A stretch of 64,000 nt of DNA, taken from positions 16,034-80,033 of the forward strand of contig JAJDTE010000143.1 of assembly GCA_022827325.1 (NCBI GenBank), written 5' to 3'. The stretch comes from Gammaproteobacteria bacterium. GTDB taxonomy: Bacteria; Pseudomonadota; Gammaproteobacteria; Arenicellales; Poriferihabitantaceae. Positions 2,028 to 57,656 of this stretch are shown here, piece by piece; position 1 is the stretch's first letter; each line of letters begins with the position of its first letter. Both the position numbers and the translations under genes were made by a program. The notes beneath the pieces were generated by a model that saw only the letters and a program-made list of their open reading frames with translations, was not told the origin of the DNA and made no database searches.

Positions 2028-3562
2028 AGATACGCGCACAAATAGGCATGGTGCTCAACCTGGACAAGTGCATCGGCTGTCACACCTGTTCGGTGACATG
2101 CAAGAATGTCTGGACCAACCGGGAGGGAGTGGAATACGCCTGGTTCAACAATGTCGAGACCAAGCCGGGCATCGGCTATCCCAAGGAGTGGGAGAACCAG
2201 AAGAAGTGGAACGGCGGCTGGGTGCGCAGGGCCAATGGCCGGATCGAGCCGAAGATGGGCTCGAAGTGGCGCATCCTCGCCAAGATCTTCGCGAACCCTG
2301 ACCTGCCGGAGATCGACGACTATTACGAGCCGTTCGATTTCGACTACGGCCATCTCCAGACGGCCCGCGAAAGCCAGGCCATGCCGACCGCGCGGCCGCG
2401 GTCACTGGTCAGCGGCGAGCGTATCGACAAGATCGAGTGGGGGCCGAACTGGGAGGAGATCCTCGGCGGCGAATTCTCCAAGCGCTCGGCGGACTACAAT
2501 TTCGAGGGCGTCGAGAAGGAGATCTACGGCGAATTCGAAAACACCTTCATGATGTACCTGCCGAGGCTGTGCGAGCACTGCCTCAATCCGACCTGCGTGG
2601 CGGCCTGCCCTTCCGGCGCGATCTACAAGCGCGAGGACGACGGCATCGTCCTGATCGACCAGGAAACCTGCCGCGGATGGCGCATGTGCGTGTCGGGCTG
2701 CCCCTACAAGAAGATCTACTACAACTGGTCGTCCGGCAAGTCCGAGAAATGCGTGTTCTGCTACCCCCGCATCGAGGCGGGCCATCCGACCGTCTGCTCG
2801 GAGACCTGCGTCGGGCGCATCCGCTATCTCGGCGTGATTCTCTACGACGCTGACCGCATCGCCGACGCGGCGTCCACCCCCGACGAGCAGGACCTGTACG
2901 AGGAACAGCTCAAGGTGTTCCTCGATCCGAACGACCCGGAAGTCATCTCCCGGGCCCGCGCGGACGGCGTGCCGGACGCCTGGCTGGAGGCGGCGATGAA
3001 ATCGCCGGTCTACAAGATGGCCATGGACTGGAAGGTGGCCTTCCCCCTGCATCCCGAGTACCGGACCCTGCCGATGGTGTGGTACGTGCCGCCGCTGTCC
3101 CCGCTGCAGTCCGCCGCCGAGGCGGGCAAGATCGGCTGGGAAGACGGCCTGCCGGACGTCCGTTCCATGCGCATCCCGGTCCGCTATCTGTCCAACCTCC
3201 TGACCGCGGGCAAGGACGAGCCGGTAATCGGCGCGCTCGAGCGCATGCTCGCCATGCGGGCCTACATGCGGTCCAAGACGATCGACGGCGTGCTCGACGA
3301 GGCGGTGGCCGAAAGGGTCGGACTGACCGGGGCCATGATCGAGGAGATGTACCGGACCATGGCGATCGCGAACTTCGAGGACCGATTCGTCATCCCCACC
3401 ACGCACCGCGAGATCACCGAGGATGCCTACGACGTGCGCGGCTCGTGCGGCTTCTCCTTCGGCAGCGGCTGCTCCGGCGGATCGACGGAAAAGGACCTCT
3501 TCGGCGCCAGGCGCACGCGCACCGTGCAGACGCCGACCGAACTGTTCAAGGAGCGGGTCTGA
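2024..3562 (+). CDS. narH: Respiratory nitrate reductase beta subunit
   Basis: MKIRAQIGMVLNLDKCIGCHTCSVTCK and further Fe-S Cys clusters (CEHCLNPTCVAACP, CRGWRMCVSGCP, CVFCYPR). Confidence 0.97.
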   Translation: MKIRAQIGMVLNLDKCIGCHTCSVTCKNVWTNREGVEYAWFNNVETKPGIGYPKEWENQKKWNGGWVRRANGRIEPKMGSKWRILAKIFANPDLPEIDDYYEPFDFDYGHLQTARESQAMPTARPRSLVSGERIDKIEWGPNWEEILGGEFSKRSADYNFEGVEKEIYGEFENTFMMYLPRLCEHCLNPTCVAACPSGAIYKREDDGIVLIDQETCRGWRMCVSGCPYKKIYYNWSSGKSEKCVFCYPRIEAGHPTVCSETCVGRIRYLGVILYDADRIADAASTPDEQDLYEEQLKVFLDPNDPEVISRARADGVPDAWLEAAMKSPVYKMAMDWKVAFPLHPEYRTLPMVWYVPPLSPLQSAAEAGKIGWEDGLPDVRSMRIPVRYLSNLLTAGKDEPVIGALERMLAMRAYMRSKTIDGVLDEAVAERVGLTGAMIEEMYRTMAIANFEDRFVIPTTHREITEDAYDVRGSCGFSFGSGCSGGSTEKDLFGARRTRTVQTPTELFKERV

Positions 3563-4290
3563 TGGAAACCGTGTTCAAGGTGGTCTCGCTCCTGCTTTCG
3601 TATCCGACGGAAGAACTCCTCGAGGCGATGCCCGAGATCCGGCAGGCGATCGACGACTCCCCCCTGGACAGAACCGGGAAGGCGGCTCTCGGGCGCCTCG
3701 CCGACGATATCGGCGGGCGCGACGCCTACGACGCCCAGGAGCGGTACGTGCTCCTGTTCGACCGCACCCGCTCGCTGTCCCTGCACCTGTTCGAGCATGT
3801 CCACGGGGAAAGCCGCGACCGCGGACAGGCCATGGTGGACCTGATGGCCATGTACGAGGAGGACGGCTTCGAGATCGGCTCGAAGGAGCTGCCGGACTAC
3901 CTGCCGATGTTCCTCGAATACCTGTCGATGAAGCCCCGGGCCGAGGCCGTCCGGCTGCTCGACGAGACCGCGCACATCCTCGCCGCCCTGCGCGAGCGCC
4001 TGAAGAAGCGGCAGTCCGTCTATGCCGACGCGTTCGTCGCCCTGGAATCGATGGCGCGGCAGAAGCCCGACGCCGGACTGCTGAAGGACCTGCTCCAGGC
4101 GCCGGACGATGACCCCACGGACCTCGATGCGCTTGACCGCATCTGGGAGGAGGAAGTGGTCACCTTCGGCGGCAACGCGGACGGGGACGACTGCGGGCTG
4201 GTGCGCCTGAAGAAGCAGATTCGCGCCGGCCGGCACCGGCCGGCCGACGCGGCAACGCCGCCCAACGCGGAGGGTACGAACCATGTCTGA
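3562..4290 (+). CDS. narJ: Nitrate reductase molybdenum cofactor assembly chaperone
   Basis: ATG at 3562 overlaps the narH stop (TGATG). LLLSYP, SLHLFEHVHGESRDRGQAMVDL and ELPDYLPMFLEY motifs. Confidence 0.95.
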   Translation: METVFKVVSLLLSYPTEELLEAMPEIRQAIDDSPLDRTGKAALGRLADDIGGRDAYDAQERYVLLFDRTRSLSLHLFEHVHGESRDRGQAMVDLMAMYEEDGFEIGSKELPDYLPMFLEYLSMKPRAEAVRLLDETAHILAALRERLKKRQSVYADAFVALESMARQKPDAGLLKDLLQAPDDDPTDLDALDRIWEEEVVTFGGNADGDDCGLVRLKKQIRAGRHRPADAATPPNAEGTNHV

Positions 4291-5002
4291 ATTCCTGAAC
4301 ACACTGCTATTCGGCATCTATCCCTATATCGCCCTCGTGGTGATGATCGTCGGCACCATCGTGCGATACGACCGTGATCCCTATACCTGGCGGTCCGGGT
4401 CGTCACAGCTGCTTCGCCGCAAGCAGCTGATCTGGGGATCGGTGCTGTTCCATGTCGGCGTCCTCATCGTCTTTTTCGGGCACCTGATCGGACTGCTCAC
4501 CCCCATCGCCTTTTTCGACATGCTGGGGATCAGCCACGGGGCGAAGCAGGTGCTGGCGATCGTCGTGGGCGGCATTGCCGGCGTCATGGCGATCGTGGGC
4601 GCGACGCTCCTGGTCCATCGCCGCCTGTTCGATGCGCGCGTACGCGCCGCCTCGAGCATGACCGATACCCTGATCATCATCCTGCTGTGGCTGCAGCTCC
4701 TGCTCGGCCTGCTGACGATCCCCGTTTCCATGCAGCATCTCGACGGGCAGGAGATGGTGAAGTTCATGAACTGGGCCCAGGGAATCTTCACGTTCGACAC
4801 CGCGGCTGCGGGCTACGTGGCCGGCTCAGCCGCCGTGTTCAAGCTGCACCTGTTTCTCGGGCTGACGATCATGGTCCTGTTTCCGTTCACGCGGCTGGTG
4901 CACATGCTGAGCGCGCCGGTGCAGTATCTGTGGCGGCCCGGCTACCAGGTGGTGCGCGAGCGCAACAAGCGCCCGGCCCCAACGCGGCTTCCCGCGGGCT
5001 GA
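4283..5002 (+). CDS. narI: Respiratory nitrate reductase gamma subunit (cytochrome b)
   Basis: FGIYPYIAL, RYDRDPYTWRSGSSQLL; heme-ligand histidines in FHVG...GH, KLHL and FPFTRLVH. Confidence 0.96.
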   Translation: MSEFLNTLLFGIYPYIALVVMIVGTIVRYDRDPYTWRSGSSQLLRRKQLIWGSVLFHVGVLIVFFGHLIGLLTPIAFFDMLGISHGAKQVLAIVVGGIAGVMAIVGATLLVHRRLFDARVRAASSMTDTLIIILLWLQLLLGLLTIPVSMQHLDGQEMVKFMNWAQGIFTFDTAAAGYVAGSAAVFKLHLFLGLTIMVLFPFTRLVHMLSAPVQYLWRPGYQVVRERNKRPAPTRLPAG

Positions 5003-5006: not shown

Positions 5007-5906
5007 TTGGTCTCGGTCCTGGTCAATCCCCCGTCCGGCCGGTCCCCGGGCAAACCGGCCGCGGGAAAGGATGCCGACACCGGGGCCACTGCCGGAGCCG
5101 TTGATCCGGCACTCGGTGAGGTCTCGGTCAACGGGATCGCGGTGCCCGAGCGTGAAATCATGGCGGAAGCGCAGAACCACCCCTCGGAAAATCCGGGCGG
5201 GGCCCTGCGGGCAGCCGCCGAGGCGCTGGTGATCCGCGAGCTTCTCTGGCAGGAAACCAGGCGCCTCGACATTCCGGCCGTGCCGGAGCGGGACGATGCC
5301 GGCCGGCTCGAAACCGAGCGCGACGCCGCCATCCGGGCCCTGATCGACCGGGAAGTGTCCGTGCCCTCGGCGACGCCGGAGGAATGCCGTCGTTACTATG
5401 AACGCCATCCCGGCAAGTTCCGCACCCCCACCCTCTTCGAGGCCCGTCACATCCTCATCGCCGTGCCGGCGTCGGATGAGGACGGCCGGCGCGCGGCGAA
5501 GATGCGCGCCCAGGCGCTTTGCGGGACCCTCGCCGAGCGGCCGGAGCTGTTCCCGGACCTGGCCCGCGACCATTCCGACTGCCCCTCGTGCGAGCAGGGC
5601 GGCAACCTGGGGCAGCTGTCCCCCGGAAGCACCGTCGCCGAATTCGAAGCCACCCTGGCGGACATGCGCGAGGGCGACATCACCCCGGCCCCGGTGGAAA
5701 GCCGGTTCGGCTTCCACGTGATCGCGCTGGACCGGAGGATCGAGGGACGCGACCTGCCCTTCGACATGGTGAGTGACCGGATCGCGGCATGGCTCGAGGC
5801 CTCCGCGTGGTCGAAAGCGGTTTCCCAGTACATCTCCATTCTCGCCGGGAAGGCGGAGATCCGCGGAATCTCCCTGGGCGGCGCGGAGGGACCGCTCGTC
5901 CAGTAG
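5007..5906 (+). CDS. PpiC/parvulin-type peptidyl-prolyl isomerase (NifM-like, nar-associated)
   Basis: ARHILI, SDCPS...GGNLG and ESRFGFHVI rotamase motifs; usual position after narI. Start codon uncertain (TTG). Confidence 0.88.
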   Translation: MVSVLVNPPSGRSPGKPAAGKDADTGATAGAVDPALGEVSVNGIAVPEREIMAEAQNHPSENPGGALRAAAEALVIRELLWQETRRLDIPAVPERDDAGRLETERDAAIRALIDREVSVPSATPEECRRYYERHPGKFRTPTLFEARHILIAVPASDEDGRRAAKMRAQALCGTLAERPELFPDLARDHSDCPSCEQGGNLGQLSPGSTVAEFEATLADMREGDITPAPVESRFGFHVIALDRRIEGRDLPFDMVSDRIAAWLEASAWSKAVSQYISILAGKAEIRGISLGGAEGPLVQ

Positions 5907-5937
5907 GAAGGCGTCAGGCCGCCAGACCCGAGGCGCC

Positions 5938-6357
5938 TTAAGCGGGATGCAGCAGGGAATCCGGCTCGCAGCTCTCGAACAGGGACGCGGTCTGCCCGTC
6001 CAGGGCAAGCTCGTTACAAAGTTCCTCCGCCCGGCTTCCTTCCCTGGGCTCCTCCCACGAAAAAATCCAGACCCGGAACCGCCTGAACCGGTCGGTCACC
6101 CTGAGCCCCGCCCCGTGAAGCGTTCGCAGCAGCGGGGCGATTTCCTCCTCGTCCGGGGGCCATTTCCCGAACGTGATAATCACCCCCATGGCCCTGTCCT
6201 CGTAGTGGGTATCGGGGCCGGTGAGAATCCCGCCGGCGGGAGCGGCGGCACAGGAAGCCACCGACAGCGCAAGGAGCAGGGCAGCAAGGCAGAACCGGCG
6301 GCCCGTCCCGGCCGCGGGTGTTCCCGGTTCCCCGGGAGTTGACCGGCCCCGGCTCAT
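5938..6357 (-). CDS. Hypothetical lipoprotein resembling a stand-alone subtilase propeptide domain
   Basis: Signal peptide RRFCLAALLLALSVASC with a lipobox-like VASC; ends ...CEPDSLLHPA, like S8 propeptide ends. Start uncertain (6357, 6399 or 6510). Confidence 0.55.
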   Translation of the reverse strand: MSRGRSTPGEPGTPAAGTGRRFCLAALLLALSVASCAAAPAGGILTGPDTHYEDRAMGVIITFGKWPPDEEEIAPLLRTLHGAGLRVTDRFRRFRVWIFSWEEPREGSRAEELCNELALDGQTASLFESCEPDSLLHPA

Positions 6358-6491
6358 CGGCCGGTTGCCGGGGTTTTCACGCGCTGGAACATCGTTCATC
6401 CCCTCATGCTGCCCCTGCGTTCCGCCGGATACATCCCGCCAACCGCTTGGCGGTACAATCGCCTCGGAACTGAAATCCGGATTATCCGAAC

Positions 6492-7289
6492 ATGCAGAAG
6501 AATTATCCACCCCGCAGGGACGCTGCCCGGTCGTGGTGCGCGGGCCTCGTGATGTCCGCCCTGCTGCTTCTCGCGCACGCGGGCACTGCCCGGGCCGGCG
6601 GCGAAGGTGCCGCCTTCCGGTGGGGAGAATCCTACGCGGGCGTGTTCGCGGGAAGCCGCCGGGCGGACCACCGGGTCATCGACGTGGAGGGTTTCGCGAA
6701 CTGGGGAAATCCCGGCTGGTCGGTGGAATACGACCGGTCCGGATTCGCCGGCGGCGTGCTGGCCGGCAGGAAGCTCCGGGGGGGCGGGCTGCCCCTCAGG
6801 ATCGAGGTCGACGGCATGTCCGGCGGCGGGACGGCCGCCTCGAACCAGCTCGATCCCGAGGGCCTTGATGAGACCGTGAGGTCCGAGTTCCGGTGGATCG
6901 CCACCGCGCGCATCGGCATCGAGCATCCCGCCGGGCCGGCGACGGTATTTGCCGGCGGCGGGCTCGCGCTTGCCGGGATCGACAGCTCGGTGACCGACAT
7001 CGACTTCGGACCCGACATGCCGACGCGGGCAGACCCGGATGACTCCTTCCGGGACAGCTCGGTGGAGGCCGGCTGGGTCTTCGGCATCGGCGTCGAAGCC
7101 CCGCTGGCCGGCAACTGGCTGCTGCGCCTGGAGGGTTCGTACCTGGATTTCGGCCGGAGCAGACATCAAGTGAACCACTCCGGCGACGGCCGCTGCGGAC
7201 CGGACGGGCCCCGCCGGCCATGCCCGTACGATATCGAGAACGACCTCGGCATCGTGCGCCTGGCAGTCATCCGCCGGTTCGGCTCCTGA
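6492..7289 (+). CDS. Outer membrane beta-barrel protein (Omp25/Omp31-like)
   Basis: Signal peptide (ARA|G), W-x-x-x-Y-x-G start, GWVFGIGVE...NWLLRLEGSYLDFG strand motifs, aromatic residue near the C-terminus. Confidence 0.8.
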   Translation: MQKNYPPRRDAARSWCAGLVMSALLLLAHAGTARAGGEGAAFRWGESYAGVFAGSRRADHRVIDVEGFANWGNPGWSVEYDRSGFAGGVLAGRKLRGGGLPLRIEVDGMSGGGTAASNQLDPEGLDETVRSEFRWIATARIGIEHPAGPATVFAGGGLALAGIDSSVTDIDFGPDMPTRADPDDSFRDSSVEAGWVFGIGVEAPLAGNWLLRLEGSYLDFGRSRHQVNHSGDGRCGPDGPRRPCPYDIENDLGIVRLAVIRRFGS

Positions 7290-7408: not shown

Positions 7409-8032
7409 ATGCTGACGATCAGCGAGGAAATCCTGCTGCTGATGCTCGACGATGAGACCGGCTGGCTGAGCGTGACGCTGCCGGGCCATCGCATCCGGGC
7501 CGCCATCAGCGGCGCCGTGCTGATGGACCTTGCCCTTGCCGACCGCATCGACACCGATCTCGAGCATCTCTTTCTCGTGAACCCGGAACCGGCCGGGGAA
7601 CCCGCGCTGGACCATGCGCTCAAGCGGATCAGGGAAGACGGGGAACGGCGCCCGGCCGACCACTGGGTGGACGTGTTCACGCGCGATCACGAGGCCGTGC
7701 GTGCGCGGATCGACGACCGCCTGGTGGAACGGGGGATCGTGTCGCGGGACCGTTTCGGCAGGCTGCTGGTGATGGGTGGCAGTCACCTTGTGGCCGCGGA
7801 CGGCACCCCGTATCGTGACGTCAGGCGACGCATCGCCGGGGAACTGATGAACGATGAAATCCCCGACCCGCGGGACATCATGATCATCAGCCTGCTGGAT
7901 ACGTGCATGCTCTGGCCCGTCCTCATCGACGAATCCCGGTTCGACCTGCTGGCCCCCAGGATCCAGCAGATTGCCCGGCTGGACCTGATCGGCCAGGCCG
8001 TAGGCCGCTTCGTCAGCATGTGGTGGGGCTGA
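7409..8032 (+). CDS. GOLPH3/VPS74 (GPP34) family protein
   Basis: MLTISEEILLLMLDDETG, GAVLMDLALADRID, LVERGIV and PDPRDIMIISL match the bacterial GPP34 pattern. Confidence 0.8.
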   Translation: MLTISEEILLLMLDDETGWLSVTLPGHRIRAAISGAVLMDLALADRIDTDLEHLFLVNPEPAGEPALDHALKRIREDGERRPADHWVDVFTRDHEAVRARIDDRLVERGIVSRDRFGRLLVMGGSHLVAADGTPYRDVRRRIAGELMNDEIPDPRDIMIISLLDTCMLWPVLIDESRFDLLAPRIQQIARLDLIGQAVGRFVSMWWG

Positions 8033-8265
8033 TCACAGGCGGTCCGGGCACTGCCAACAACGAATCCGCGGCGGCATTGGGGCCTGCCGTACGTTCACTC
8101 AATTGATGGCCGCAGGGTCGCCGGACCGCCCGGGACGGCCCTTCTGCCGGACCGCTTCAGGCCGTTTCGCTTTCTCCAGAATCCGCTCCGGCTGCTGCCG
8201 CCCGGAACGTTCGTTGCCGGACGGGCTTCACTGCCGCAGGGAAAGGATGCCGTTCCATGGCGATG

Positions 8266-8280
8266 ATCAATCTTATTGAT
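8266..8280. promoter_or_regulatory. Palindromic LysR-type box ATCAAT-N3-ATTGAT upstream of mcl
   Basis: Perfect dyad (ATC-N9-GAT, T-N11-A) in an AT-rich patch about 90 bp before the mcl start. Confidence 0.5.
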
Positions 8281-8371
8281 ACGTTGCATAAACATTCGGA
8301 ATTATCGTTTTTCCGTGTTTTCTGCGATATCCGCAGGTTTCCCACTGTTGCACACGAGGGAGAGGTCCCAG

Positions 8372-9340
8372 ATGAGTTTCTTCGAGATTCCCCCCCTGAC
8401 CGTCCGCCTGCAGCGCAGCGAACTTGCCGTTCCCGGTTCGAGTCCGGAGATGTTCGAGAAAGCCGCCAACAGCGACGCCGATTATGTTTTCCTGGACTGC
8501 GAAGATGCCGTGGCCCCGCCGGACAAGGAGAAGGCAAGAACCAACATCATCGGCGCCCTGAACGACATTGACTGGAAGGCGAAGGGCAAGACGGTTTCGG
8601 TTCGAATCAACGGTCTTGACACCCATTACATGTACCGTGATGTCGTCGATATCGTCGAGCAGGCCGGGGATCGGCTCGACACGATCCTGATTCCCAAGGT
8701 CGGGGTTCCGGAAGACATCTATGTCGTGGACTGCCTGGTATCCCAGATCGAACAGGCCCGGGGCGCATCACACCGGATCGGACTGGAATGCCTGATCGAG
8801 ACATCGCTCGGCATGGCCAACGTCGAAGCGATCGCACGGTCCGCGTGCCGGGCGGGGTCCCGGCTTGAGGCACTGCATTTCGGGGTGGCGGACTATGCGG
8901 CAAGCTGCCGTGCCAGAACCGTCGTCATCGGGGGGCTGAACCCGGATTATCCGGGAGACCAGTGGCATGCCAGCCTGCAGCGCATGCTGGTTGCGTGCAG
9001 GTCCTACGGCCTGAGGGCGATCGACGGGCCCTACGGGGATTACAACGACCCGGACGGATTCATCGCCGCGGCGAAACGCGTCGCCGCGATGGGTTACGAG
9101 GGAAAATGGGCGATCCATCCCTCGCAGATTGAGCTGGCAAACCGGGTCATGTCCCCACCCGAGGCCGAGGTCGAGCGGGCGCGGGGGATCCTGGAAGCCC
9201 TGGAAGAAGCGGAAAAGGCCGGCAAGGGCGCGGCATCCCTGGACGGAAAGCTGATTGACGCGGCATCCGCAAGGATGGCGCGGAACATCGTGGAGCAGGG
9301 CATGGCCATTGCCGCGCGCGCATCCGGGACATCCGGCTGA
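8372..9340 (+). CDS. mcl: Malyl-CoA lyase (CitE/HpcH family)
   Basis: [49 protein letters not shown] and [10 protein letters not shown]; adjacent to mtkAB. RBS GGGAGAGG precedes ATG 8372. Confidence 0.9.
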
Positions 9341-9353
9341 GGAGGGAAGGAAA

Positions 9354-10523
9354 ATGGAAATACATGAATACCAGGCCAAGCAGCTGCTGGGCGAATTCGG
9401 CGTGAACATTCCTCCGGGCGGCCTGGCCTACAGTCCGGAACAGGCGGTGTACCGCGCCAGCGAACTGGGGGGCAGCCGGTGGGTAGTCAAGGCGCAGATC
9501 TATTCCGGCGGGCGGGGCAAGGCCGGCGGGATCAAGGTGTGCGGTGACAGCCACGAGATCTGGGATGCGTCCGAATCGCTGCTCGGGCGAAGGCTGGTCA
9601 CCGCCCAGACTGGGCCGGCCGGAAAGCCCATTTACCGGCTGTACGTGGAGCCGGCATTCAACATCCTGAGCGAGAAATATTTCGGCCTCGTTCTGGACCG
9701 GAGCCGCGAGTGCATCGTCGCCGTCGGTTCCGCGGAGGGCGGCATGGACATCGAGGAACTGGCGGAGAGCCGGCCGGATGCCATCATCCGGACCGAGATC
9801 GAACCTGCGGTCGGAATGCAGATGTTCCAGGCCAAGCGCCTGGCTTACCAGATCGGGTTCGACGCACAGGATACCGGCCAGGCGGCAAACATCTTTCTGC
9901 GCGCCTACCGGGCGTTTCGCGACCTGGATGCGACCATGCTGGAAATCAATCCCCTGGCGGTAACCGCCGAAGGCGGGGTCCTGGCCCTGGATGCCAAGAT
10001 GACATTCGATGACAACGCCCTGTTCCGCCACTCGATGATTTCCGAGTTCCGGGACAAGTCGCAGGAAGATCCGAACGAGATGGAGGCGGCCGACCGGGGA
10101 CTGAGCTACGTGGGGCTCGAAGGCAACATCGGCTGTATCGTCAACGGCGCGGGGCTGGCCATGGCCACCATGGACATCATCAAGCTCCGGGGGGGAGAAC
10201 CCGCCAATTTCATGGATATCGGCGGCGGTGCTTCACCCAGCCGGGTGGCAAAGGCATTCCGGCTGGTTCTGTCCGACCCGAAGGTGAAGGCAATCCTGGT
10301 CAACATCTTTGCCGGAATCAATCGTTGCGACTGGGTCGCGGAAGGCGTGATCGAGGCGGTAAGACGATTCGAGCCCGGGATTCCGGTGGTGGTCCGCCTG
10401 TCGGGCACCAACATGGACGAAGGCCTGCGGATGATTCGTGAATCGGGCCTTCAGATCCAATCAACCGACACTCTCGACGGCGCGGTCAAGGCGGCGGTCG
10501 AATCCATTTCGGAGAAAGGCTGA
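9354..10523 (+). CDS. mtkA: Malate-CoA ligase (malate thiokinase) beta subunit, SucC-like
   Basis: [28 protein letters not shown], and [15 protein letters not shown] (the Mtk-type variant of SucC GGI-x-RCD); follows mcl. Confidence 0.88.
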
Positions 10524-11416
10524 TGGCGATACTGATCAATCGGGACACGCCCATACTGGTCCAGGGGTTCACCGGGAAGATCGCCACTTTCCACAGTACC
10601 GAAATGATTGATTACGGGTCGAACGTCGTGGGCGGCGTGACCCCCGGGAAAGGGGGCACAAGGCACCTTGAGCGGCCCGTGTTCAACTCGGTTCATGACG
10701 CGGTATCGGAAACCGGCGCCGAGGCAAGCATCATTTTCGTGCCGCCCGCGTTCGCGGCCGACAGCATCATGGAGGCGGTGGATGGCGGGATTCAACTCTG
10801 TGTTGCCATCACGGACGGGATACCGGCCCAGGACATGCTGCGGGTCAAGCGTTACATGAGGCGGGTCAAGAAGGAACGGCGCATGCTGCTGATCGGTCCG
10901 AACTGTGCGGGTGTCATCAGTCCCGGAAAGTCCATGCTGGGAATCATGCCGGGACACATCTACAAGGCGGGCAGCATCGGCATCGTCAGCCGTTCAGGCA
11001 CCCTCGGATACGAGGCGGCGTATCAACTCAAGCAGGTGGGGGCCGGGGTGTCCACCTCGGTCGGAATTGGCGGCGATCCGATCAACGGCAGTTCCTTCAG
11101 GGATCACCTCGAACGGTTCGAGCAGGACAACGAAACCCGGGTGGTGCTCATGATCGGGGAGATCGGCGGACCCCAGGAGATCGAGGCGGCGAAGTTCTGT
11201 CGGGAAAACATGTCCAAGCCCGTGATCGGCTATATCGCCGGCCTGACGGCCCCGAAAGGCAGACGCATGGGGCACGCCGGGGCGATCGTCAACACCGCCG
11301 GCGAGAGCGCCCGGGAAAAGGTCGAAATGCTGAAGGAGAACAATGTGACCATTGTTCCCTCTCCGGCCCAGTTTGCCGAAACGGTCCTGTCAGCTGCCGG
11401 CTCTCTCGTAACATAG
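10523..11416 (+). CDS. mtkB: Malate-CoA ligase alpha subunit, SucD-like
   Basis: VQGFTGK, GGVTPGKGG, SRSGTLGYEA, GIGGDP and phospho-His motif RMGHAGA; ATG overlaps the mtkA stop. Confidence 0.88.
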   Translation: MAILINRDTPILVQGFTGKIATFHSTEMIDYGSNVVGGVTPGKGGTRHLERPVFNSVHDAVSETGAEASIIFVPPAFAADSIMEAVDGGIQLCVAITDGIPAQDMLRVKRYMRRVKKERRMLLIGPNCAGVISPGKSMLGIMPGHIYKAGSIGIVSRSGTLGYEAAYQLKQVGAGVSTSVGIGGDPINGSSFRDHLERFEQDNETRVVLMIGEIGGPQEIEAAKFCRENMSKPVIGYIAGLTAPKGRRMGHAGAIVNTAGESAREKVEMLKENNVTIVPSPAQFAETVLSAAGSLVT

Positions 11417-11693
11417 GCGGGAACCCTGCCCGGGTGCGTCAACCCCGCCAGGGTAAACGGCGTGACCTCACTCCGCAGTCCGCAGCAACCCATACACCAT
11501 GGCGCCAGGCACACCACCCACTCGTGCGGCGCCATGACCTCGTGCCCTCGATGATCGGCCATGTGCCTGGTTCGAATTCGCCCAATGGGGCAACATCGAC
11601 CTCGACACCTTCTTGTGCCGCTCCCGGGAGGCGGCGGCCATTGATACCCGAAATCACTGCAGGGAAATTCCAATACAAGTAAAGTCTCTGTAA

Positions 11694-11706
11694 AATCAAT
11701 CTGTTA
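11694..11706 (+). promoter_or_regulatory. IHF-binding consensus (AATCAAtctgTTA)
   Basis: Exact match to WATCAANNNNTTR in an AT-rich stretch upstream of the SHMT-like gene. Confidence 0.45.
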
Positions 11707-11850
11707 GAATACCATTCCCTAATTCAACAGCAGACAATTACCATTGATGGAACACACTTTCATATACATTCCGGTGGTCTTGCCCGTGACCGATGTGCCC
11801 GGTCTGGGGCTTTTCATGCCACGGGTGCTGCTCGAGTTTGGGTGAGAACG

Positions 11851-13140
11851 ATGATGCGCCCTGACAACGCCCCCCCGGGTCATCTGTCGCGCTCTCTGGC
11901 CGAGGTCGATCCGCCGGTCCGTGCGGCGCTCGACAGTGAGGCGTCCCGCCAATACGCGCAGATTGAGCTCATCGCCTCGGAAAACATCATGAGCCGTGCG
12001 GTGCTCGAGGCACTCGGGCACGAGATCGGAAACAAGACGCTGGAAGGTTATCCCGCAAACCGCTTCCACGGCGGCGGCGAGAATGTTGACGTCGTCGAAC
12101 GCCTCGCCATCGAGCGCACGAAGGAACTCTTCGGTGCGACCTATGCCAATGTCCAGCCGCACTCGGGCACACAGGCCAATCAGGCCGTGTTCTTCGTGCT
12201 GCTACGCCCCGGAGACCGGATCCTGAGTCTGGATCTGGCAGCTGGCGGACACCTCAGCCATGGTGCTGGAGCAAACCTCTCGGGACGCTGGTTCGACTCC
12301 CATCACTACGGTGTGGACCGCGCGAGCGGTCTGCTGGATTACGACGCGATCGAGACCCGGGCCCGCGAGGTGCGTCCGGCGCTGTTGATCGCCGGCGGGT
12401 CGGCTTATCCGCGTGTCATCGACTTCGAACGCATGGCCCGGATCGCGGAAGCAGTCGAAGCACGGTTACTGGTGGACATGGCACACATCGCCGGGCTCGT
12501 CGCTGCCGACGCGCACCCCTCGCCCCTGCCTCATGCCGACATCGTTACCTGCACCACGACCAAAACCTTGCGCGGACCCCGGGGCGGCGTCATCCTCGCG
12601 CAATCAGACGAATTCGCAAAACGCCTTCAATCCGCAGTCTTCCCCGGTGTCCAGGGAAGCCTTCACCCCAACGTTCTCGCCGCCAAGGCAGTGTGCCTGG
12701 GCGAAGCCCTTCGCCCGGAGTTCAGAGTCTATGGGCAGCGCGTCGTGCAAAACGCGCGCGTGCTCGCCGCCACGCTCGCGGACCGCGGCATCGGGATAGT
12801 TGGCGGCGGCACCGACACCCACATGGTGCTGCTCGATCTCGCATCGGTGGGCCTTCTCGGCCAACAGGCTGAAACTGTGCTGGCCAAGGCCGGCATCACA
12901 TCCAACAAGAACCCGGTCCCGTTCGACGCGCGAAGCCCTTCGAAATGGACCGGGTTGCGACTGGGCGTCTCGGCCGTGACGACACGCGGCCTTGCGCCCC
13001 CTGATATGGAAGTACTTGGGGCGTGCATCGCCGATCTGCTGCATGGCGAGTCCCGTTCGGACCCCGGCCCGGCGCTTGCCCAGGCAGAACCCATCATCGC
13101 CCGGCTCGCTCAGAGCGTAGACTGGTACGGCACGACATGA
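11851..13140 (+). CDS. glyA: Serine hydroxymethyltransferase family paralog of the 2-methylserine (D-alanine 2-) hydroxymethyltransferase type
   Basis: SHMT fold (LIASEN, NVQPHSG, GGHLSHG, DMAHIAGL, KTLRGPRGG), but with NKTLEGYPANRFHGGG, CTTTKTL and QGSLHPN in place of canonical NKYAEGYPGKRYYGGC, TTTHKTL and QGGP. Alternative GTG start at 11842. Confidence 0.9.
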   Translation: MMRPDNAPPGHLSRSLAEVDPPVRAALDSEASRQYAQIELIASENIMSRAVLEALGHEIGNKTLEGYPANRFHGGGENVDVVERLAIERTKELFGATYANVQPHSGTQANQAVFFVLLRPGDRILSLDLAAGGHLSHGAGANLSGRWFDSHHYGVDRASGLLDYDAIETRAREVRPALLIAGGSAYPRVIDFERMARIAEAVEARLLVDMAHIAGLVAADAHPSPLPHADIVTCTTTKTLRGPRGGVILAQSDEFAKRLQSAVFPGVQGSLHPNVLAAKAVCLGEALRPEFRVYGQRVVQNARVLAATLADRGIGIVGGGTDTHMVLLDLASVGLLGQQAETVLAKAGITSNKNPVPFDARSPSKWTGLRLGVSAVTTRGLAPPDMEVLGACIADLLHGESRSDPGPALAQAEPIIARLAQSVDWYGTT

Positions 13141-13551
13141 CCGACTTTGAATAATCCTCTTCCAGGTGGCCACACATCATGATACGCCATGGTCCACCGC
13201 TCCTTGCCCGCACCCAGCGCACTGCTACCGACGACAGCATCAGGGGGATTCCGGGGCATGTTGTCCGCAGTGAACGGATTCACTGGCAGGAGAATGTAAC
13301 AGTCTACTCGATCGTGTCCTCCAAGGTAGTAGGGCGTCACGGTCGCATCGTCTGTATAGTCCCTCAGGCCTCTGAACCAGATGAGCATGGACTCACCGGT
13401 TTGATCCGGGCAGCACAATCTCGAAAGACCATGGAGGAAGAAGGCCGGCAATTCTGACCGGCCGTCCCGAATGGGCGATCTCCGACAAAGGGGTTTAACT
13501 TCCCGAATTTGTGCCGATTTATTGGGTGAACGATCCCTGCAGAACGGAACC

Positions 13552-14910
13552 ATGCTGTCCAGAGTCCCGTGCGCCCTTCTCGGTGCCGGCCTTCTTTTCC
13601 TCCTCGGGCTGTCCGGCCCCGCCCATGCCCTGTTGCCCGCCCGGGTGGATGGCGAGCCCCTGCCCAGCCTGGCGCCGATGCTGGAAAATGTCCTCCCGGC
13701 GGTGGTGAACATCTCCACCACTACCCGGATCCGGACCACGGATCACCCTTTGATGCAGGATCCGTTCTTCCGCCGGTTCCTCGGCCCGCGCGAGCGGGAG
13801 GGCAGCAGCCTCGGTTCCGGGGTCATCGTCGATGCCGTGAACGGCTACATTCTCACGAACCACCATGTCATCGACCGGGCCGACGAGATCACCGTCACCA
13901 CCAACGACGGCCGGTCCATGGAAGCAACCCTGGTGGGCTCCGATGAGGACAGCGACGTCGCAGTCATCCAGGTGCGGGGAGACAACCTGCAGGCCATTGC
14001 CATCGGCAGGTCCGCGGAACTTCGCGTGGGCGATTTCGTGGTGGCCATCGGCAGCCCGTTCGGGCTCAGCCAGACCGTGACCTCCGGCATCGTCAGCGCC
14101 CTCGGCCGCAGCGGCCTCGGGATCGAGGGCTATGAGGATTTCATCCAGACCGACGCCTCCATCAACCCAGGCAACTCCGGGGGCGCGCTGGTGAATCTCC
14201 GCGGGGAACTGGTCGGCATCAACACCGCGATCCTGTCCCGCGGCGGCGGGAGCATCGGCATCGGCCTTTCCATACCCGTCGACATGGCCGGCGCGCTGAT
14301 GTCCCAGATTATTGAGCACGGCGACGTGCAGCGCGGCATCCTCGGTGTGGCCATGCAGGATCTCACGCCCCGGCTGGCGGAAGCCTTCGGCATCCCGGGC
14401 AGGCGCGGCGCCGTGGTCTCCCAGGTGGTTCCCGGCTCCGCGGCGGAGGAAATCGGCATGCAGTCGGGTGATGTCATCGTCGGCTTCGACAACGCCGAGA
14501 TCCACGACAGCGCCGACCTCCGAAACGCCGTGGGACTGCTGCGCACGGGTGACAAGGGCACCGTGGCCTTCTACCGGGGCGGCCGGCTGATCGAGCGGGA
14601 AGTCACCATCCACGATCCGCGGAAGGTCGCGAATGTCCAGGGCAAGGCCCCGGCAGACAGCCGTTTTGCCGGCGCAGCCTTCGAGGGGGTGACTTCCGAG
14701 GACGGCGAGAAGGCCATCCGGGTCACCGGCATCGAACCCGGCAGTCCCGCGGCCCGCACGGGCATCGTCCCGGGCGACGTGATCTATTCGGTCAACCGGC
14801 ATCGGATCGAGTCGGTGGACGACCTGTCGAATGTCGTCGAGCGGTCGGACGGCGTGCTCCTGATGCGCCTGCTGCGCGACGGACGGGCCCTGTTCCTGGT
14901 GGTGAAGTAG
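13552..14910 (+). CDS. degQ: DegQ/DegP family periplasmic serine endoprotease with two PDZ domains
   Basis: Signal peptide (AHA), PSLAPMLE, TNHHV, D, and GNSGGAL catalytic triad motifs; two PDZ domains. Confidence 0.92.
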   Translation: MLSRVPCALLGAGLLFLLGLSGPAHALLPARVDGEPLPSLAPMLENVLPAVVNISTTTRIRTTDHPLMQDPFFRRFLGPREREGSSLGSGVIVDAVNGYILTNHHVIDRADEITVTTNDGRSMEATLVGSDEDSDVAVIQVRGDNLQAIAIGRSAELRVGDFVVAIGSPFGLSQTVTSGIVSALGRSGLGIEGYEDFIQTDASINPGNSGGALVNLRGELVGINTAILSRGGGSIGIGLSIPVDMAGALMSQIIEHGDVQRGILGVAMQDLTPRLAEAFGIPGRRGAVVSQVVPGSAAEEIGMQSGDVIVGFDNAEIHDSADLRNAVGLLRTGDKGTVAFYRGGRLIEREVTIHDPRKVANVQGKAPADSRFAGAAFEGVTSEDGEKAIRVTGIEPGSPAARTGIVPGDVIYSVNRHRIESVDDLSNVVERSDGVLLMRLLRDGRALFLVVK

Positions 14911-15033
14911 ACTTTCCGCCGTTCCGCTGCCGCTTGCGGGCGCATCCTCTCCCTTGCGCCGGACAAATGATGTATTTTCTCCACTGTCTGCCGGGCCATG
15001 GGCCTTGCATGGCCGGCATGCTGCAACTTCATC

Positions 15034-15729
15034 ATGACAGAATTCCTCCTGGCGATTACCCTCTTTGTCGTGGCCCATGCCGTGCCGCCGGCTCCCCCGG
15101 TGCGCCGGCGCCTGGTCTCCGTCCTCGGCCGGCGCCTGTACCTGACCGTCTACTCCCTCGCCTCCCTTGTCCTCCTTGCCTGGGTCATTTCCGCCGCTGT
15201 CAGGGCCCCGCTCATTCTGCTCTGGGCGCCGACGGGCTGGCAGTGGGTGGTGCCCGTCGCCGCGATGCCGCTGGCGTTCTGGTTCCTCGTCGCCGGCCTC
15301 GCCGAAGCCAACCCGCTTTCCATTTCTTTCCGTCGCCGTGACCCGGCCGTCCCTCTTCCCCCGATTGTCCGGATCACCCGCCACCCCGTGATCTGGGGCT
15401 TCCTGATCTGGGCAGGGGCACATGTTCCGCCCAACGGCGATGTCGTCTCGCTCATCCTGTTCGGTGGGATGACCGCCCTTGCCGCGGCGGGCATTCCCAT
15501 GCTCGAGCGGCGTGCCCGGCAGCGGCTCGGCGACCTGCAGTGGCGGGAAATGTCACGAACCACTTCCGTCTTCCCTTTTGCCGCCGTCCTCTCGGGAAGG
15601 TCCGGACTCCGCGTGAACGGCCCGTTCCTCCAGCATGCCATCGCGGGGATCGCCGCCTACCTGTGGTTCCTCCTTAAGGGCCACGAATGGCTGATCGGGG
15701 TCGACCCGCTGGCATGGCTCTCCTGGTGA
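15034..15729 (+). CDS. nnrU: NnrU family membrane protein
   Basis: FVVAHAVP...R..L...LG, YSLASL, RITRHP..WG..IWA.AH.PPNGD and RTTSVFPF motifs. Confidence 0.85.
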   Translation: MTEFLLAITLFVVAHAVPPAPPVRRRLVSVLGRRLYLTVYSLASLVLLAWVISAAVRAPLILLWAPTGWQWVVPVAAMPLAFWFLVAGLAEANPLSISFRRRDPAVPLPPIVRITRHPVIWGFLIWAGAHVPPNGDVVSLILFGGMTALAAAGIPMLERRARQRLGDLQWREMSRTTSVFPFAAVLSGRSGLRVNGPFLQHAIAGIAAYLWFLLKGHEWLIGVDPLAWLSW

Positions 15730-15748
15730 CCTGAAGCAGTCTCCCCGC

Positions 15749-16906
15749 ATGCGACACGTCCTTTTCAGCCACGGTTTCCGTCCGTTCTTTCTTGGCGGCG
15801 CCCTCTGGGCCGCGGCCACCATGCTGTTCTGGGCCGCCCTGCTGACCGGGCACATCACGTTCGAGACCCCCTACGGCGTCGTCGTATGGCATTCCCATGC
15901 ACTCCTTTTCGGGTACGGATCGGCGATCGTGGCCGGCTTCCTGCTGACCGCCATACCGAACTGGACCGGGCGCCCGCCGGTCGGCGGCCCGGTGTTATTT
16001 GTCCTGTTCGCTGTCTGGCTGTCGGGCCGGGTGGCGGTCCTGCTCGCGGGCACGGTCGGGCTTGTTGCCGCGGCCATCGTCGACAGCCTCTTCCTGCTCG
16101 GAATGTCCGCCGTCGTCTTCCGGGAGATTGTCGCCGGGCGGAATCGCCGCAATCTCACCGTGGCAGTGATCGTGCTCCTTTATTGCCTGACCAATATCGC
16201 CTTTCATCTCGAGCTTATCCAGAGCGGCTATCCGTTCCATGCCACCAAGGCGGCGGTTTCGGTTCTCGTCATCCTGATCATGCTGATCGGCGGCCGGATC
16301 ATTCCCGGCTTCACCCGGAACTGGCTTACGGCCCAGGGCGCCCGGGCGCTTCCGGCGCCATTCAGTGCATTCGACCGGCTCGCGCTCGGTGTCGCCGTGT
16401 CCGCCCTGGCGATCTGGACCGTCTTCCCGTGGTGGCGGCTTACGGGCTGGACGCTCCTCCTGGCCGCGCTCATCCAGGCCGTCCGTCTTGCACGCTGGTC
16501 GGGCCACCGCACCTTCCGCGAACCCCTCGTTCTGATCCTGCATGTCGGCTATGCCTTCGTGCCGCTGGGCTTCGCCGCCGTCGGGGGCGCCATCCTGTGG
16601 CCCTACGCCGTTCCCGTCTCCGGATCGCTGCATGCCTGGACCACCGGGGCGATCGGCGTGATGACCCTCGCCGTCATGACCCGTGCAAGCAGGGGGCATT
16701 CCGGACGCCCCCTGACCGCCCCCGCCTCCACGCAGTTCATCTACCTGCTCGTGCTCCTTTCGGCCATCGCCCGGCTCGCCGCGGCCCTGCTGCCGGAATC
16801 GGCATTCCCGCTTCTCGTGTTCTCCTCCCTTGCGTGGGCGGCCGCCTTCTCCGCCTTCGTGATCTTCTACGGCCCGATGCTCCTGGAGTCCCGCGGGGAG
16901 GACTGA
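15749..16906 (+). CDS. nnrS: NnrS family heme/copper membrane protein
   Basis: GFRPFFL, WHSHALLFGY, GFLLTAIPNWTG, GGRIIPGFTRNW, LHVGY, HAWTTG and MTRASRGHSGR. Confidence 0.92.
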   Translation: MRHVLFSHGFRPFFLGGALWAAATMLFWAALLTGHITFETPYGVVVWHSHALLFGYGSAIVAGFLLTAIPNWTGRPPVGGPVLFVLFAVWLSGRVAVLLAGTVGLVAAAIVDSLFLLGMSAVVFREIVAGRNRRNLTVAVIVLLYCLTNIAFHLELIQSGYPFHATKAAVSVLVILIMLIGGRIIPGFTRNWLTAQGARALPAPFSAFDRLALGVAVSALAIWTVFPWWRLTGWTLLLAALIQAVRLARWSGHRTFREPLVLILHVGYAFVPLGFAAVGGAILWPYAVPVSGSLHAWTTGAIGVMTLAVMTRASRGHSGRPLTAPASTQFIYLLVLLSAIARLAAALLPESAFPLLVFSSLAWAAAFSAFVIFYGPMLLESRGED

Positions 16907-36047: not shown

Positions 36048-36077
36048 GTTCCTGCTTCCAAGATCAGCAAGTCGCCA

Positions 36078-37229: not shown

Positions 37230-37248
37230 CGAACTTGCGCTCTCATTA

Positions 37249-37289
37249 TTGACATGAAAGATTCTATGTTTAGAATGTTAGTATGTCAA
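37249..37289. promoter_or_regulatory. Overlapping bidirectional sigma70 promoters forming a dyad
   Basis: Plus strand: TTGACA(37249-54)-N16-TAGAAT(37271-76). Minus strand: TTGACA(37289-84)-N17-TAGAAT(37266-61). Confidence 0.75.
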
Positions 37290-37329
37290 AATCTATTTCG
37301 ATTTCAGATCAGCACGAAAGGAAGATCCC

Positions 37330-38064: not shown

Positions 38065-38117
38065 GCCGGCCTGCACCGGCAGGCAGGCAACCACCAACCG
38101 CGCATAGGAGGTTAGAA

Positions 38118-39080: not shown

Positions 39081-39094
39081 GTCGTCCCGGTCCG

Positions 39095-39574: not shown

Positions 39575-39586
39575 CCGACTATTCCC

Positions 39587-42503: not shown

Positions 42504-44930
<2,427 letters not shown>

Positions 44931-44997
44931 TTATATCATGAAACCACCCGCATTCGGGCCGGAACCCGATCAGGACATGATTTATTTTATATCTATT

Positions 44998-45010
44998 AAT
45001 CAATTTGTTA
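44998..45010 (+). promoter_or_regulatory. IHF consensus in AT-rich region upstream of gyrB
   Basis: AATCAAtttgTTA, an exact WATCAANNNNTTR match; a TATAAT -10 box lies on the minus strand near 44929-44934. Confidence 0.45.
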
Positions 45011-45551: not shown

Positions 45552-45567
45552 TGTTTCACGTGAAACA
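45552..45567. promoter_or_regulatory. parS centromere site
   Basis: Perfect consensus TGTTTCACGTGAAACA. Confidence 0.92.
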
Positions 45568-57636: not shown

Positions 57637-57656
57637 CGGGACGCGTCCCGAAGAGG

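Follow-up and report, generated by a model that had tools for sequence, protein, structure and literature searches.

The SHMT-family gene that follows mcl, mtkA and mtkB in the window (the whole stretch of DNA that we analyzed, 64,000 nucleotides) is, judged by its sequence, not a canonical GlyA; it belongs to the known 2-methylserine-type branch of the family. The locus is likely to contain two functionally separate units lying side by side, an mcl-mtkAB operon and a methylserine-type gene; their adjacency looks incidental, that is, without functional meaning.

Layout of the locus

The four genes are all located on the + strand (window 8372-13140), in a chromosomal region near dnaA of a gammaproteobacterium-like genome. 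The first, mcl (8372..9340, 322 aa), encodes an L-malyl-CoA/beta-methylmalyl-CoA lyase of the HpcH/CitE family (PF03328, 133.5 bits); the top PDB match of its product is 5ugr, a malyl-CoA lyase/beta-methylmalyl-CoA lyase (408.6 bits, residues 1-314), it is 61% identical to the mcl product of a Rhizobiaceae serine-cycle locus (L051), and it scores under every NCBIfam equivalog cut-off. After 13 nt, mtkA (9354..10523, + strand, 389 aa) encodes the beta subunit of malate--CoA ligase (malate thiokinase; NF010647, 623.8 bits, cut-off 604), ~63-65% identical to the annotated beta subunits encoded by Paracoccus, Aminobacter and Ruegeria plasmids; its stop codon is overlapped by the ATG of mtkB (10523..11416, + strand, 297 aa), which encodes the SucD-type alpha subunit (NCBIfam NF004230, 427 bits; 66% identical to mtkB of L051 and of a second such locus, L041). 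These matches bear out the mcl-mtkAB identities given in a sequence-only reading of this DNA, the quoted motifs and coordinates of which are exact in the translation and the ORFs. The three genes would form a tight operon, with products predicted to interconvert malate and glyoxylate + acetyl-CoA via malyl-CoA.

The SHMT-family gene (11851..13140, + strand; PF00464, 462 bits) is assigned to the Thr/His (2-methylserine) type by its signature residues and clade. The ORF opens at GTG 11842 (432 aa), but ATG 11851 or 11854 is the likelier start; the 429-aa protein from ATG 11851 fits a 98% relative (P0001) that also has 429 aa. The gene is separated from mtkB by 434 nt (11417..11850; 425 nt when counted to the GTG start), as compared with the 13 nt and the overlap inside mcl-mtkAB, and is probably transcribed apart from the mcl-mtkAB operon.

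The G+C content of this gap is 56.7%, with an A+T-rich core near 11650-11770. An Rfam search of the gap returned no family at E<=1, and a consensus scan found no promoter-like or terminator-like site in it, including none terminator-like after mtkB; read-through from mtkB is conceivable. Upstream of mcl is a sigma-70-like promoter match (8276..8305, + strand; TTGATA-18-AATTAT, 9/12) that is a weak consensus match only; because the 5.7-kb region has 2 promoter-like sites and 1.3 are expected from shuffles, this match is not significant alone. The G+C content is lower in mcl-mtkAB (62.4%) than in the SHMT-family gene (65.2%); at third positions all four genes (0.75-0.79) are below most flanking genes (0.82-0.90), and these lowered values could reflect a common history.

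Signature residues and clade membership

The translation of the SHMT-family gene contains NKTLEGYPANRFHGGG, VTCTTTK and FPGVQGSLHPN. Residues were numbered by alignment with the GlyA of E. coli K-12 (from NC_000913.3; EC 2.1.2.1; PDB 1dfo), a protein of the same fold and length that is 46% identical (192/414 aligned positions); from the aligned positions, the earlier numbering of Y55, Y65 and the TTTHK histidine is correct. The window protein has Thr in place of Tyr55 (residue 66, codon 12037-12039), Phe in place of Tyr64 (residue 75), His in place of Tyr65 (residue 76, codon 12067-12069), Thr in place of His228 directly before the PLP lysine (residues 240/241), Ser in place of Gly263 (S273) and His in place of Leu265 (H275). 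In an alignment of 40 variant and 42 canonical rows, these and four more columns fully separate the groups (Q47L, Y55T, Y64F, Y65H, G118S, T128S, H228T, G263S, L265H, T359W), that is, 0/40 variant rows have the canonical residue and 0/42 canonical rows have the variant one; position 55 is Thr in 39/40 variant rows and Ser in the remaining one. The substitutions are non-random and define a clade.

In a tree of 81 rows (40 variant, 41 canonical), the variant and canonical sequences are split with an SH-aLRT of 100, so the phylogeny called for in the sequence-only reading places the gene within the variant clade and canonical GlyA on the opposite side of a fully supported split. The window protein groups with L004, L001, L034 and L002 (support 100); the closest relatives are 98-86% identical. 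The clade includes glyA2 of plasmid p1_Teo1 (Pseudomonas hunanensis Teo1; 58.4% identity to the window protein) and plasmid genes of Ensifer adhaerens and Paracoccus aminophilus (~64%). Across this range (58-64% identity) the PLP and folate residues are kept, and the signature T55/F64/H65/T228/S263 is common to the window protein, the Teo1 mSHMT and the EC 2.1.2.7 enzymes.

The Thr/His pair has already been published as a donor-specificity signature, and Y55T in SHMT widens the donor to D-Ser. A review (PMC6411801) contrasts Tyr55/Tyr65 of SHMT with Thr60/His70 of alpha-methylserine hydroxymethyltransferases; in a paper on PbzB (PMC10098953), a larger pocket for a C-alpha-substituted substrate is the rationale for Thr and His at these positions. 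PbzB, which has T68 and H78, produces 2-hydroxymethylserine, and the double mutant T68Y/H78Y shows no activity. The earlier claim that these residues mark alpha-methylserine-type enzymes is documented. Because the clade holds the Teo1 mSHMT and dsdA-linked genes and the Thr/His signature is published, the enzyme belongs to a known kind. The caution about automatic labels was also sound: the variant scores 512 bits with the general NCBIfam SHMT model, above its cut-off of 335, and relatives of the variant are called 'serine hydroxymethyltransferase' at NCBI; in UniRef, several sequences close to the Ensifer gene carry the name '2-methylserine hydroxymethyltransferase'.

The conserved PLP, folate and catalytic residues are S35, E57, H126, D200, H203, T226, K229, R235, N347, R363 and R372; the catalytic residues of canonical GlyA (Lys, Asp, His, Arg) are kept. 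Folate-independent alpha-methylserine aldolases exist, and AibC, although its annotation is SHMT, decarboxylates 2-amino-2-methylmalonate and has no hydroxymethyltransferase activity. By these precedents the window protein might catalyze a different PLP reaction, aminomalonate-type decarboxylation or folate-independent aldol cleavage; we regard this as very unlikely, given that it retains E57 and N347, which we take to be folate-side residues, and that other genes of the clade are linked to those for folate-cofactor recycling (folD, purU).

The retention of all PLP and folate residues, E57 included, also favors a glycine/L-serine SHMT, that is, the variant could be the working GlyA of the cell and, for example, convert glycine from Mcl- or glycolate-derived glyoxylate to serine, the cluster then being an ordinary unit for C2 salvage or for part of the serine cycle, with a divergent GlyA. 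The gph and rpe genes 4-5 kb downstream would fit such a unit; however, the rpe-gph-trpE order is common in gamma- and betaproteobacteria irrespective of metabolism. Six variant loci have MttB-family and DMGDH-like genes nearby, which are sources of C1 units and glycine; canonical glyA is found beside mtkAB in L041 and L051; and PbzB, itself of the Thr/His type, takes glycine and L-serine too, according to PMC10098953. However, 42/42 canonical sequences have Tyr55, Tyr65 and His228, whereas every variant row has other residues there, and the same paper calls Tyr55/Tyr65 crucial if glycine and serine are to be interconverted efficiently. Annotations of named cultured strains give the variant as an additional copy (glyA2, 'serine hydroxymethyltransferase 2'), and the only GlyA in the serine-cycle clusters examined (L041, L051) is canonical. 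This assignment is therefore unlikely.

Genome neighborhoods of the relatives

The methylserine-type assignment was compared with the neighborhoods of the variant gene at 39 genome loci with fetched flanks (28 show at least 3.5 kb upstream). A DsdA-like gene with FolD and PurU is near the variant in 6/39 loci, and amino-acid ABC transport genes occur with dsdA/folD/purU among the neighbors. A DadA-like FAD oxidase is encoded immediately 3' of the variant in two loci (L014 and L019), and TRAP transporter genes are immediately 5' in two others (L001 and L008); the subclade of the window protein (L001, L002, L004, L034) has no conserved neighborhood. The Ensifer adhaerens and Paracoccus aminophilus genes are located with D-serine ammonia-lyase (dsdA), LysR and amino-acid ABC transporter genes, and the Ensifer locus additionally has folD and purU. 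In a paper on TRIS degradation (PMC10848231), the Teo1 gene is called mSHMT and lies in cluster II; the glyA2-dsdA-folD-purU-dsdX cluster is assigned to the breakdown of 2-hydroxymethylserine, a step 'plausibly' catalyzed there. The neighbors of the relatives point toward D-amino-acid handling.

Unlike these plasmid genes, the window gene is chromosomal and adjoins mcl-mtkAB, and none of their partners (dsdA, folD, purU, LysR, ABC transporter, dsdX) lies beside it. The scanned ORFs of the 64-kb window include no sga, hpr, gck, ppc, folD, purU, dsdA or dadA, which covers the serine-cycle and D-serine dehydratase genes that the sequence-only reading had proposed to look for, and no LysR or amino-acid transporter gene adjoins the SHMT-family gene; because the family partner genes are absent from these ORFs, the local context gives no positive support for a catabolic role. 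The enzyme might instead act in the synthetic direction and make 2-methylserine or 2-hydroxymethylserine as a natural-product building block, as its Thr/His-type homologues FmoH and PbzB do for JBIR-34/35 and benzobactins. The PbzB/FmoH-type enzymes (PDB 7QWZ, according to PMC10098953) share the Thr and His at the Tyr55/Tyr65 positions; however, they keep Tyr64 (TAEG--RYH) and sit in NRPS clusters, whereas the window protein has TLEG--RFH, as in the catabolic group, its best PDB matches by sequence are canonical bacterial SHMTs, and the annotated ORFs of the window include no NRPS or other biosynthetic genes. A synthetic role is most improbable.

The sequence-only reading had joined the four genes into an undescribed module, in which a serine-cycle-like Mtk/Mcl route would assimilate the C1 units that alpha,alpha-disubstituted amino acids supply, or those of a C1 transfer based on D-amino acids. 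Such a module would account for the adjacency of four genes in the same orientation, for the lack of a terminator-like site behind mtkB and for third-position G+C below that of most flanking genes, and the canonical glyA in the comparable place in L041 and L051 is a functional precedent for an SHMT next to mtkAB. Both gene sets also occur in one genome: the Ca. Spongiihabitans chromosome of L021 encodes the variant and an Mcl 82% identical to that of the window, and two Ruegeria plasmids carry both the variant and mcl/mtk-type genes. However, on these shared replicons they are far apart (>400 kb on the Ruegeria plasmids; not within 8 kb of the variant in L021), mcl or mtk is found within the fetched flanks of the variant in 0/39 genome loci, and neither is annotated in the three plasmid loci with the variant (Teo1, Ensifer, Paracoccus); the proposed co-occurrence is not a conserved linkage. 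For Mcl and the SHMT-family protein, the 98% relatives are recorded on contigs that differ in length (7,999 and 35,896 nt), a weak hint only.

The comparison with serine-cycle clusters also argues against the module. Among such clusters of alphaproteobacterial methylotrophs and their relatives, the one on Aminobacter aminovorans pAA01 has the same mcl-mtkA-mtkB order, and Mcl, MtkA and MtkB are 61-66% identical to those of L041/L051; however, these three clusters also contain sga, hpr, gck and/or ppc, and L041/L051 a canonical glyA as well, none of which was found among the scanned ORFs of the window. The 434-nt gap adds to this, and methylene-THF enters the serine cycle only via the glycine-to-serine step, from which this active site appears to be shifted away. 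We consider the module quite improbable.

Predicted function

With mcl-mtkAB as a separate operon, the SHMT-family gene stands as a single Thr/His-type gene of the alpha-methylserine hydroxymethyltransferase branch (EC 2.1.2.7), of which enzymes from Paracoccus, Aminobacter and Ensifer were reportedly described by Nozaki et al. in 2008/2009. The enzyme keeps the whole PLP + tetrahydrofolate machinery, with the three bulky residues around C-alpha (Tyr55, Tyr65, His228) exchanged for the smaller Thr, His and Thr; the enlarged pocket could then take a second C-alpha substituent. The hydroxymethyl group of the putative substrate, 2-methylserine or 2-hydroxymethylserine, would be moved reversibly onto tetrahydrofolate, and the products, 5,10-methylene-THF and D-alanine or D-serine, would be used by enzymes encoded elsewhere in the genome.

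Signature of the SHMT-family protein

The SHMT-family gene located 3' of mcl-mtkA-mtkB opens at GTG 11842 and extends to 13140 (+ strand); ATG 11851 is the likelier start, because P0001, a relative that is 98% identical, is 429 aa long. The encoded protein has the SHMT fold (PF00464, 462 bits), and its PLP lysine is intact. We aligned E. coli K-12 GlyA (NC_000913.3) with 40 Thr/His-type ('variant') and 41 other canonical sequences; ten columns divide the variant from the canonical rows without overlap (40 vs 42 rows), that is, Q47L, Y55T, Y64F, Y65H, G118S, T128S, H228T, G263S, L265H, and T359W in E. coli numbering (Y55T in 39 of the 40 variant rows, with Ser in the remaining row). The signature residues of the window protein include T66, F75, H76, T240 (which adjoins the PLP lysine, K241), S273, and H275; T66 and H76 are ten residues apart, matching the spacing in the literature, and provide the Thr at Tyr55 and the His at Tyr65 that correspond to Thr60/His70 of the published EC 2.1.2.7 enzymes. 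Tyr55, Tyr64, Tyr65, His228, and the QGGP turn are kept in 42/42 canonical rows, and the window protein has T/F/H/T/QGSL in their place; the motifs cited in the sequence-only reading are, then, present in the window translation. Every row keeps the PLP/folate residues (S35, E57, H126, D200, H203, T226, K229, R235, N347, R363, and R372). Searches of the PDB with the full-length protein and with the 71-residue motif region identified only canonical SHMTs among the best 60 of 87 matches.

In E. coli, GlyA mutants altered at H228 no longer discriminate at Cα, and this behavior fits the H228T replacement of the variant. In a review (PMC6411801), SHMT Tyr55/Tyr65 are stated to be Thr60/His70 in α-methylserine hydroxymethyltransferases, where they govern donor specificity, and an SHMT with Y55T can use D-Ala and D-Ser; PMC4761611 states the same Y55T effect. 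PbzB is a biosynthetic homologue in which, according to PMC10098953, T68/H78 superimpose on GlyA Y55/Y65 (enlargement of the pocket is proposed) and the T68Y/H78Y mutant is inactive; its product is 2-hydroxymethylserine, formed from L-Ser, D-Ser or, slowly, glycine. For the window enzyme we infer that an α,α-disubstituted serine analogue would be bound as the PLP aldimine, that its hydroxymethyl group would be passed to tetrahydrofolate, and that D-Ala or D-Ser would be released. Because AibC, annotated as an SHMT, is described as a decarboxylase without hydroxymethyltransferase activity, this predicted reaction calls for caution.

Phylogeny and distribution of the clade

The window protein was compared with its counterparts in 80 related genome loci. 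The variant motifs are present in all of L001–L038 (59–84% identity), the L040 protein is a hybrid, and L039 and L041–L080 are canonical (51–58% identity). We then calculated a maximum likelihood tree (IQ-TREE, quick search, LG+G4) from which the incomplete L024, L032, and L040 proteins were left out; its 81 rows comprise the window protein, 77 locus proteins, and the products of three plasmid genes. The locus proteins span stop-to-stop reading frames, and sparsely filled columns were removed from the alignment. In the tree, variant (40) and canonical (41) sequences are split with SH-aLRT 100; the window protein groups with L004, L001, L034, and L002 (support 100), nested in the clade that contains the Teo1 glyA2 gene (L081) as well as the dsdA-linked genes of Ensifer and Paracoccus (L082 and L083). 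This split and the ten separating columns bear out the proposal that the gene is not a canonical glyA but a member of the methylserine-type family, that is, it lies apart from canonical GlyA and together with genes implicated in 2-methylserine/2-hydroxymethylserine metabolism.

The plasmids were searched by tblastn for SHMT-family relatives, and all three plasmid genes have the variant motifs. The glyA2 gene of Pseudomonas hunanensis Teo1 (plasmid p1_Teo1; 58.4% identity) is found in the order glyA2-dsdA-folD-purU-dsdX; the Ensifer adhaerens and Paracoccus aminophilus genes (~64% identity to the window protein) adjoin genes for D-serine ammonia-lyase, a LysR regulator, and an amino-acid ABC transporter, with folD and purU also present in Ensifer. 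α-Methylserine hydroxymethyltransferases have reportedly been purified and assayed from strains AJ110402, AJ110403, and AJ110404. In the TRIS paper (PMC10848231), the Teo1 gene is called a methylserine hydroxymethyltransferase, its protein is described as most closely resembling the enzymes that Nozaki et al. confirmed, and the reaction proposed is conversion of 2-hydroxymethylserine to D-serine and methylene-THF. The substrates published for the clade are just 2-methylserine and 2-hydroxymethylserine, plus the synthetic buffer TRIS upstream of these.

The clade includes >120 clusters at 72–98% identity to the window protein, and these are distributed among Gamma- and Alphaproteobacteria that are marine or associated with sponges; the neighboring genes are diverse. 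UniRef gives the name '2-methylserine hydroxymethyltransferase' to several near relatives of the Ensifer gene; the NCBI name is 'serine hydroxymethyltransferase'. Judged by signature and clade, the window gene is a predicted additional example of a known enzyme class (EC 2.1.2.7).

Genome neighborhoods of the variant relatives

Because ORF picking erred in high-G+C loci (L001, L029, L033, and L036), the neighbor counts are based on BLAST clusters and Pfam matches and are not a complete gene list. With this strategy, a DsdA-like gene accompanied by FolD, PurU, and a family-3 binding protein was located in 6/39 variant or hybrid loci (L031, L033, and L035–L038). A DadA-like FAD oxidase is encoded immediately 3' of the variant gene in L014 and L019, and TRAP transporter genes are immediately 5' of it in L001 and L008; these neighbors, as read from sequence, would fit a catabolic role. 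Six loci (L011, L016, L020, L026, L027, and L032) contain MttB-family genes, six (L008, L011, L016, L020, L021, and L026) contain DMGDH-like (DAO+GCV_T) genes, and Rieske oxygenases are encoded in L004 and L028. Given this diversity, the clade has no single context. The dsdA/dadA and folD/purU context is usual rather than defining: it is found in the six genome loci and the plasmid loci L081–L083 and not in the window, where genes for D-amino-acid catabolism (dsdA, dadA) and folate recycling (folD, purU) are absent among the ORFs scanned over 64 kb.

Several of these neighborhoods have features of their own. The non-pyrrolysine MttB-family and DAO+GCV_T genes are 1–5 kb from the Thr/His-type gene; their loci belong to a subclade that consists of MAGs of marine Gammaproteobacteria and a single MAG labeled Haliangium, also contain genes for an HNH protein, PhzF, M19 dipeptidase, and hydantoinase A/B, and hint at a connection to the breakdown of methylated amines. 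L040 encodes a third SHMT type (5557–6495, + strand; partial at the contig end), directly 3' of a degP-like gene; the protein shares 68% identity with that of the window and has Thr/His at Tyr55/Tyr65 (NKTLEGYPGHRFHGGG), but the PLP lysine is preceded by VTFTTYK, and QGTPS replaces QGGP or QGSLH. In Rhizobium sp. AC27/96 (L031), a second SHMT-family gene (1878–3197, + strand; 31% identity, Pfam SHMT 141.9 bits) adjoins an IS66 transposase and is separated by a LysR gene from the Thr/His-type gene and its dsdA-like/folD/purU set; it might encode an α-methylserine-aldolase-like enzyme.

The four-gene locus

On the + strand of the window, the SHMT-family gene is preceded by a HpcH/CitE-family gene, mcl (8372–9340), by mtkA (9354–10523), and by mtkB (10523–11416). 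Mcl is a full-length match to the solved malyl-CoA/β-methylmalyl-CoA lyase PDB 5ugr (408.6 bits, residues 1–314), and MtkA scores 623.8 bits with NCBIfam NF010647 (malate--CoA ligase beta; equivalog cut-off 604); MtkB matches SucD-type models only. Thus, given an MtkA score that exceeds the equivalog cut-off and an Mcl that resembles a solved lyase from end to end, the first three genes have the features of malate thiokinase and malyl-CoA lyase. They are tightly spaced (a 13-nt spacer, then an ATG/stop overlap). The gap between mtkB and the SHMT-family gene is 425–434 nt and has lower G+C (56.7%) than mcl-mtkAB (62.4%), the SHMT-family gene (65.2%), and the flanks (66.3–66.6%); in third-position G+C, all four genes are below most flanking genes.

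The left flank contains narGHJI (90–5002) and genes for a PpiC-type isomerase, an outer-membrane barrel, and a GPP34-family protein; the right flank contains degP/Q, nnrU and nnrS (14998–16906, + strand), rpe, gph, and trpEG(D)C. The segment is therefore positioned between nitrate-respiration and NO-response gene sets.

An Rfam scan of 7800–13600 (E ≤ 1) identified no riboswitch or leader in the mtkB–SHMT gap. The scan returned a sub-threshold match to the group II intron D1-D4 model in the intergenic DNA directly 5' of mcl (8099–8239, − strand; 25 bits, gathering score 49, E = 0.014), which is probably a chance match; the other match was to an lncRNA and was dismissed as meaningless. A repeat search of 8040–13200 found that the two upstream regions have in common only chance-level short matches; an 8-mer spotted by eye in both regions was absent from its results and was discarded.

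Association of the SHMT-family gene with mcl-mtkAB

The sequence-only reading had proposed an undescribed module in which α,α-disubstituted amino acids supply C1 units assimilated through Mtk/Mcl, or a D-amino-acid-based variant of C1 transfer. In the boldest form of such a reading, which has little probability, the methylserine-type enzyme would have been recruited beside mcl-mtkAB in this gammaproteobacterial lineage and would work with Mcl/Mtk: in one version, α,α-disubstituted amino acids would supply C1 units to a serine-cycle-like route; in another, the enzyme would hydroxymethylate glycine, or D-amino acids, that originate from the glyoxylate produced by Mcl. Coupling of this kind is not known for the enzyme class. 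In its favor are four adjacent genes on the same strand with no promoter-like site in the mtkB–SHMT gap and no terminator-like site 3' of mtkB in the scan for such sites; also, canonical glyA beside mtkAB elsewhere provides a precedent, and PbzB accepts glycine. However, when the window Mcl, MtkA, and MtkB were used as tblastn queries against all 80 loci, matches were found in just two, L041 (mtkA and mtkB) and L051 (mcl, mtkA, and mtkB), both with canonical GlyA. In none of the 39 loci with a variant or hybrid gene was mcl or mtk detected in the flanks (upstream DNA of at least 3.5 kb in 28 and at least 1 kb in 36, with almost none in L014, L024, and L034), and none is annotated in the three plasmid loci, so the co-occurrence anticipated for a module is not seen; the adjacency is unique among the loci examined.

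The rest of the serine cycle is also absent locally. L041 and L051 contain full serine-cycle clusters with a class-V aminotransferase, mtkAB, hydroxypyruvate/glyoxylate reductase, and canonical glyA (L041 also has ppc, and L051 has mcl), and the order on Aminobacter aminovorans pAA01 is sga-mcl-mtkA-mtkB-hpr-gck; in contrast, the ORFs scanned in the window included no sga, hpr, gck, or ppc, and its mcl and mtkAB adjoin a non-canonical SHMT-family gene.

Elsewhere the genes are separated. Two Ruegeria plasmids carry the variant gene and mtkA >400 kb apart, and the Ca. Spongiihabitans chromosome (L021; 4,414,935 nt) encodes an Mcl that is 82% identical to that of the window >8 kb from its variant gene. 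The contigs listed for the 98% relatives of the SHMT-family protein and of Mcl measure 35,896 and 7,999 nt, respectively, and the best 120 relatives of each have no contig size in common; these lengths speak neither for nor against a link. The Mcl relatives (74–98% identity) are chiefly from Gammaproteobacteria MAGs, Granulosicoccus, Chromatiales, and Methylohalomonas, whereas the named SHMT-variant relatives (81–83%) are from MAGs labeled Deltaproteobacteria, Rhodospirillales, and Boseongicola, with a Gemmatimonadetes MAG at 81% (L034); these unlike taxa suggest that the two genes may have had separate histories. The open full-text literature, which does not extend to subscription journals, contained in the portions retrieved no link between methylserine hydroxymethyltransferase and Mcl/Mtk; malyl-CoA and methylserine occur together in one general review of C1 biocatalysis, with no such module. 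Because the adjacency is unique in the material examined and the remainder of the serine cycle is missing locally, the proposed module is unsupported, and we consider functional coupling with Mcl/Mtk very improbable.

Other features of the window

A TPP riboswitch (58761–58875, − strand; 68.2 bits, gathering score 54.3) is located upstream of the thiamine ABC transporter operon thiB-thiP-thiQ (55335–58697, − strand). Because dnaA, dnaN, and gyrB (42504–48601, − strand) coincide with a minimum in cumulative GC skew (~44–46 kb), the window probably includes the chromosomal replication origin. The region 34020–41104 has lower G+C (57–60%) and may be an acquired island; it encodes a metallophosphoesterase, a sulfotransferase-family protein, a GntR/UTRA regulator, and a TctCBA tripartite tricarboxylate transporter.

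Implications for annotation and function

NCBI-style pipelines label the whole clade 'serine hydroxymethyltransferase', so the expectation that automatic annotation would misname the gene was correct, and metabolic reconstruction would wrongly assign a GlyA step beside mcl-mtkAB; the mislabeled gene might then lead to inference of a serine cycle. For separating variant from canonical SHMTs, a simple rule can be drawn from the ten columns that distinguish them. A new pathway would be important if true, and the evidence presented here speaks against it; the natural substrates of the marine and sponge-associated members of the clade are a testable question.
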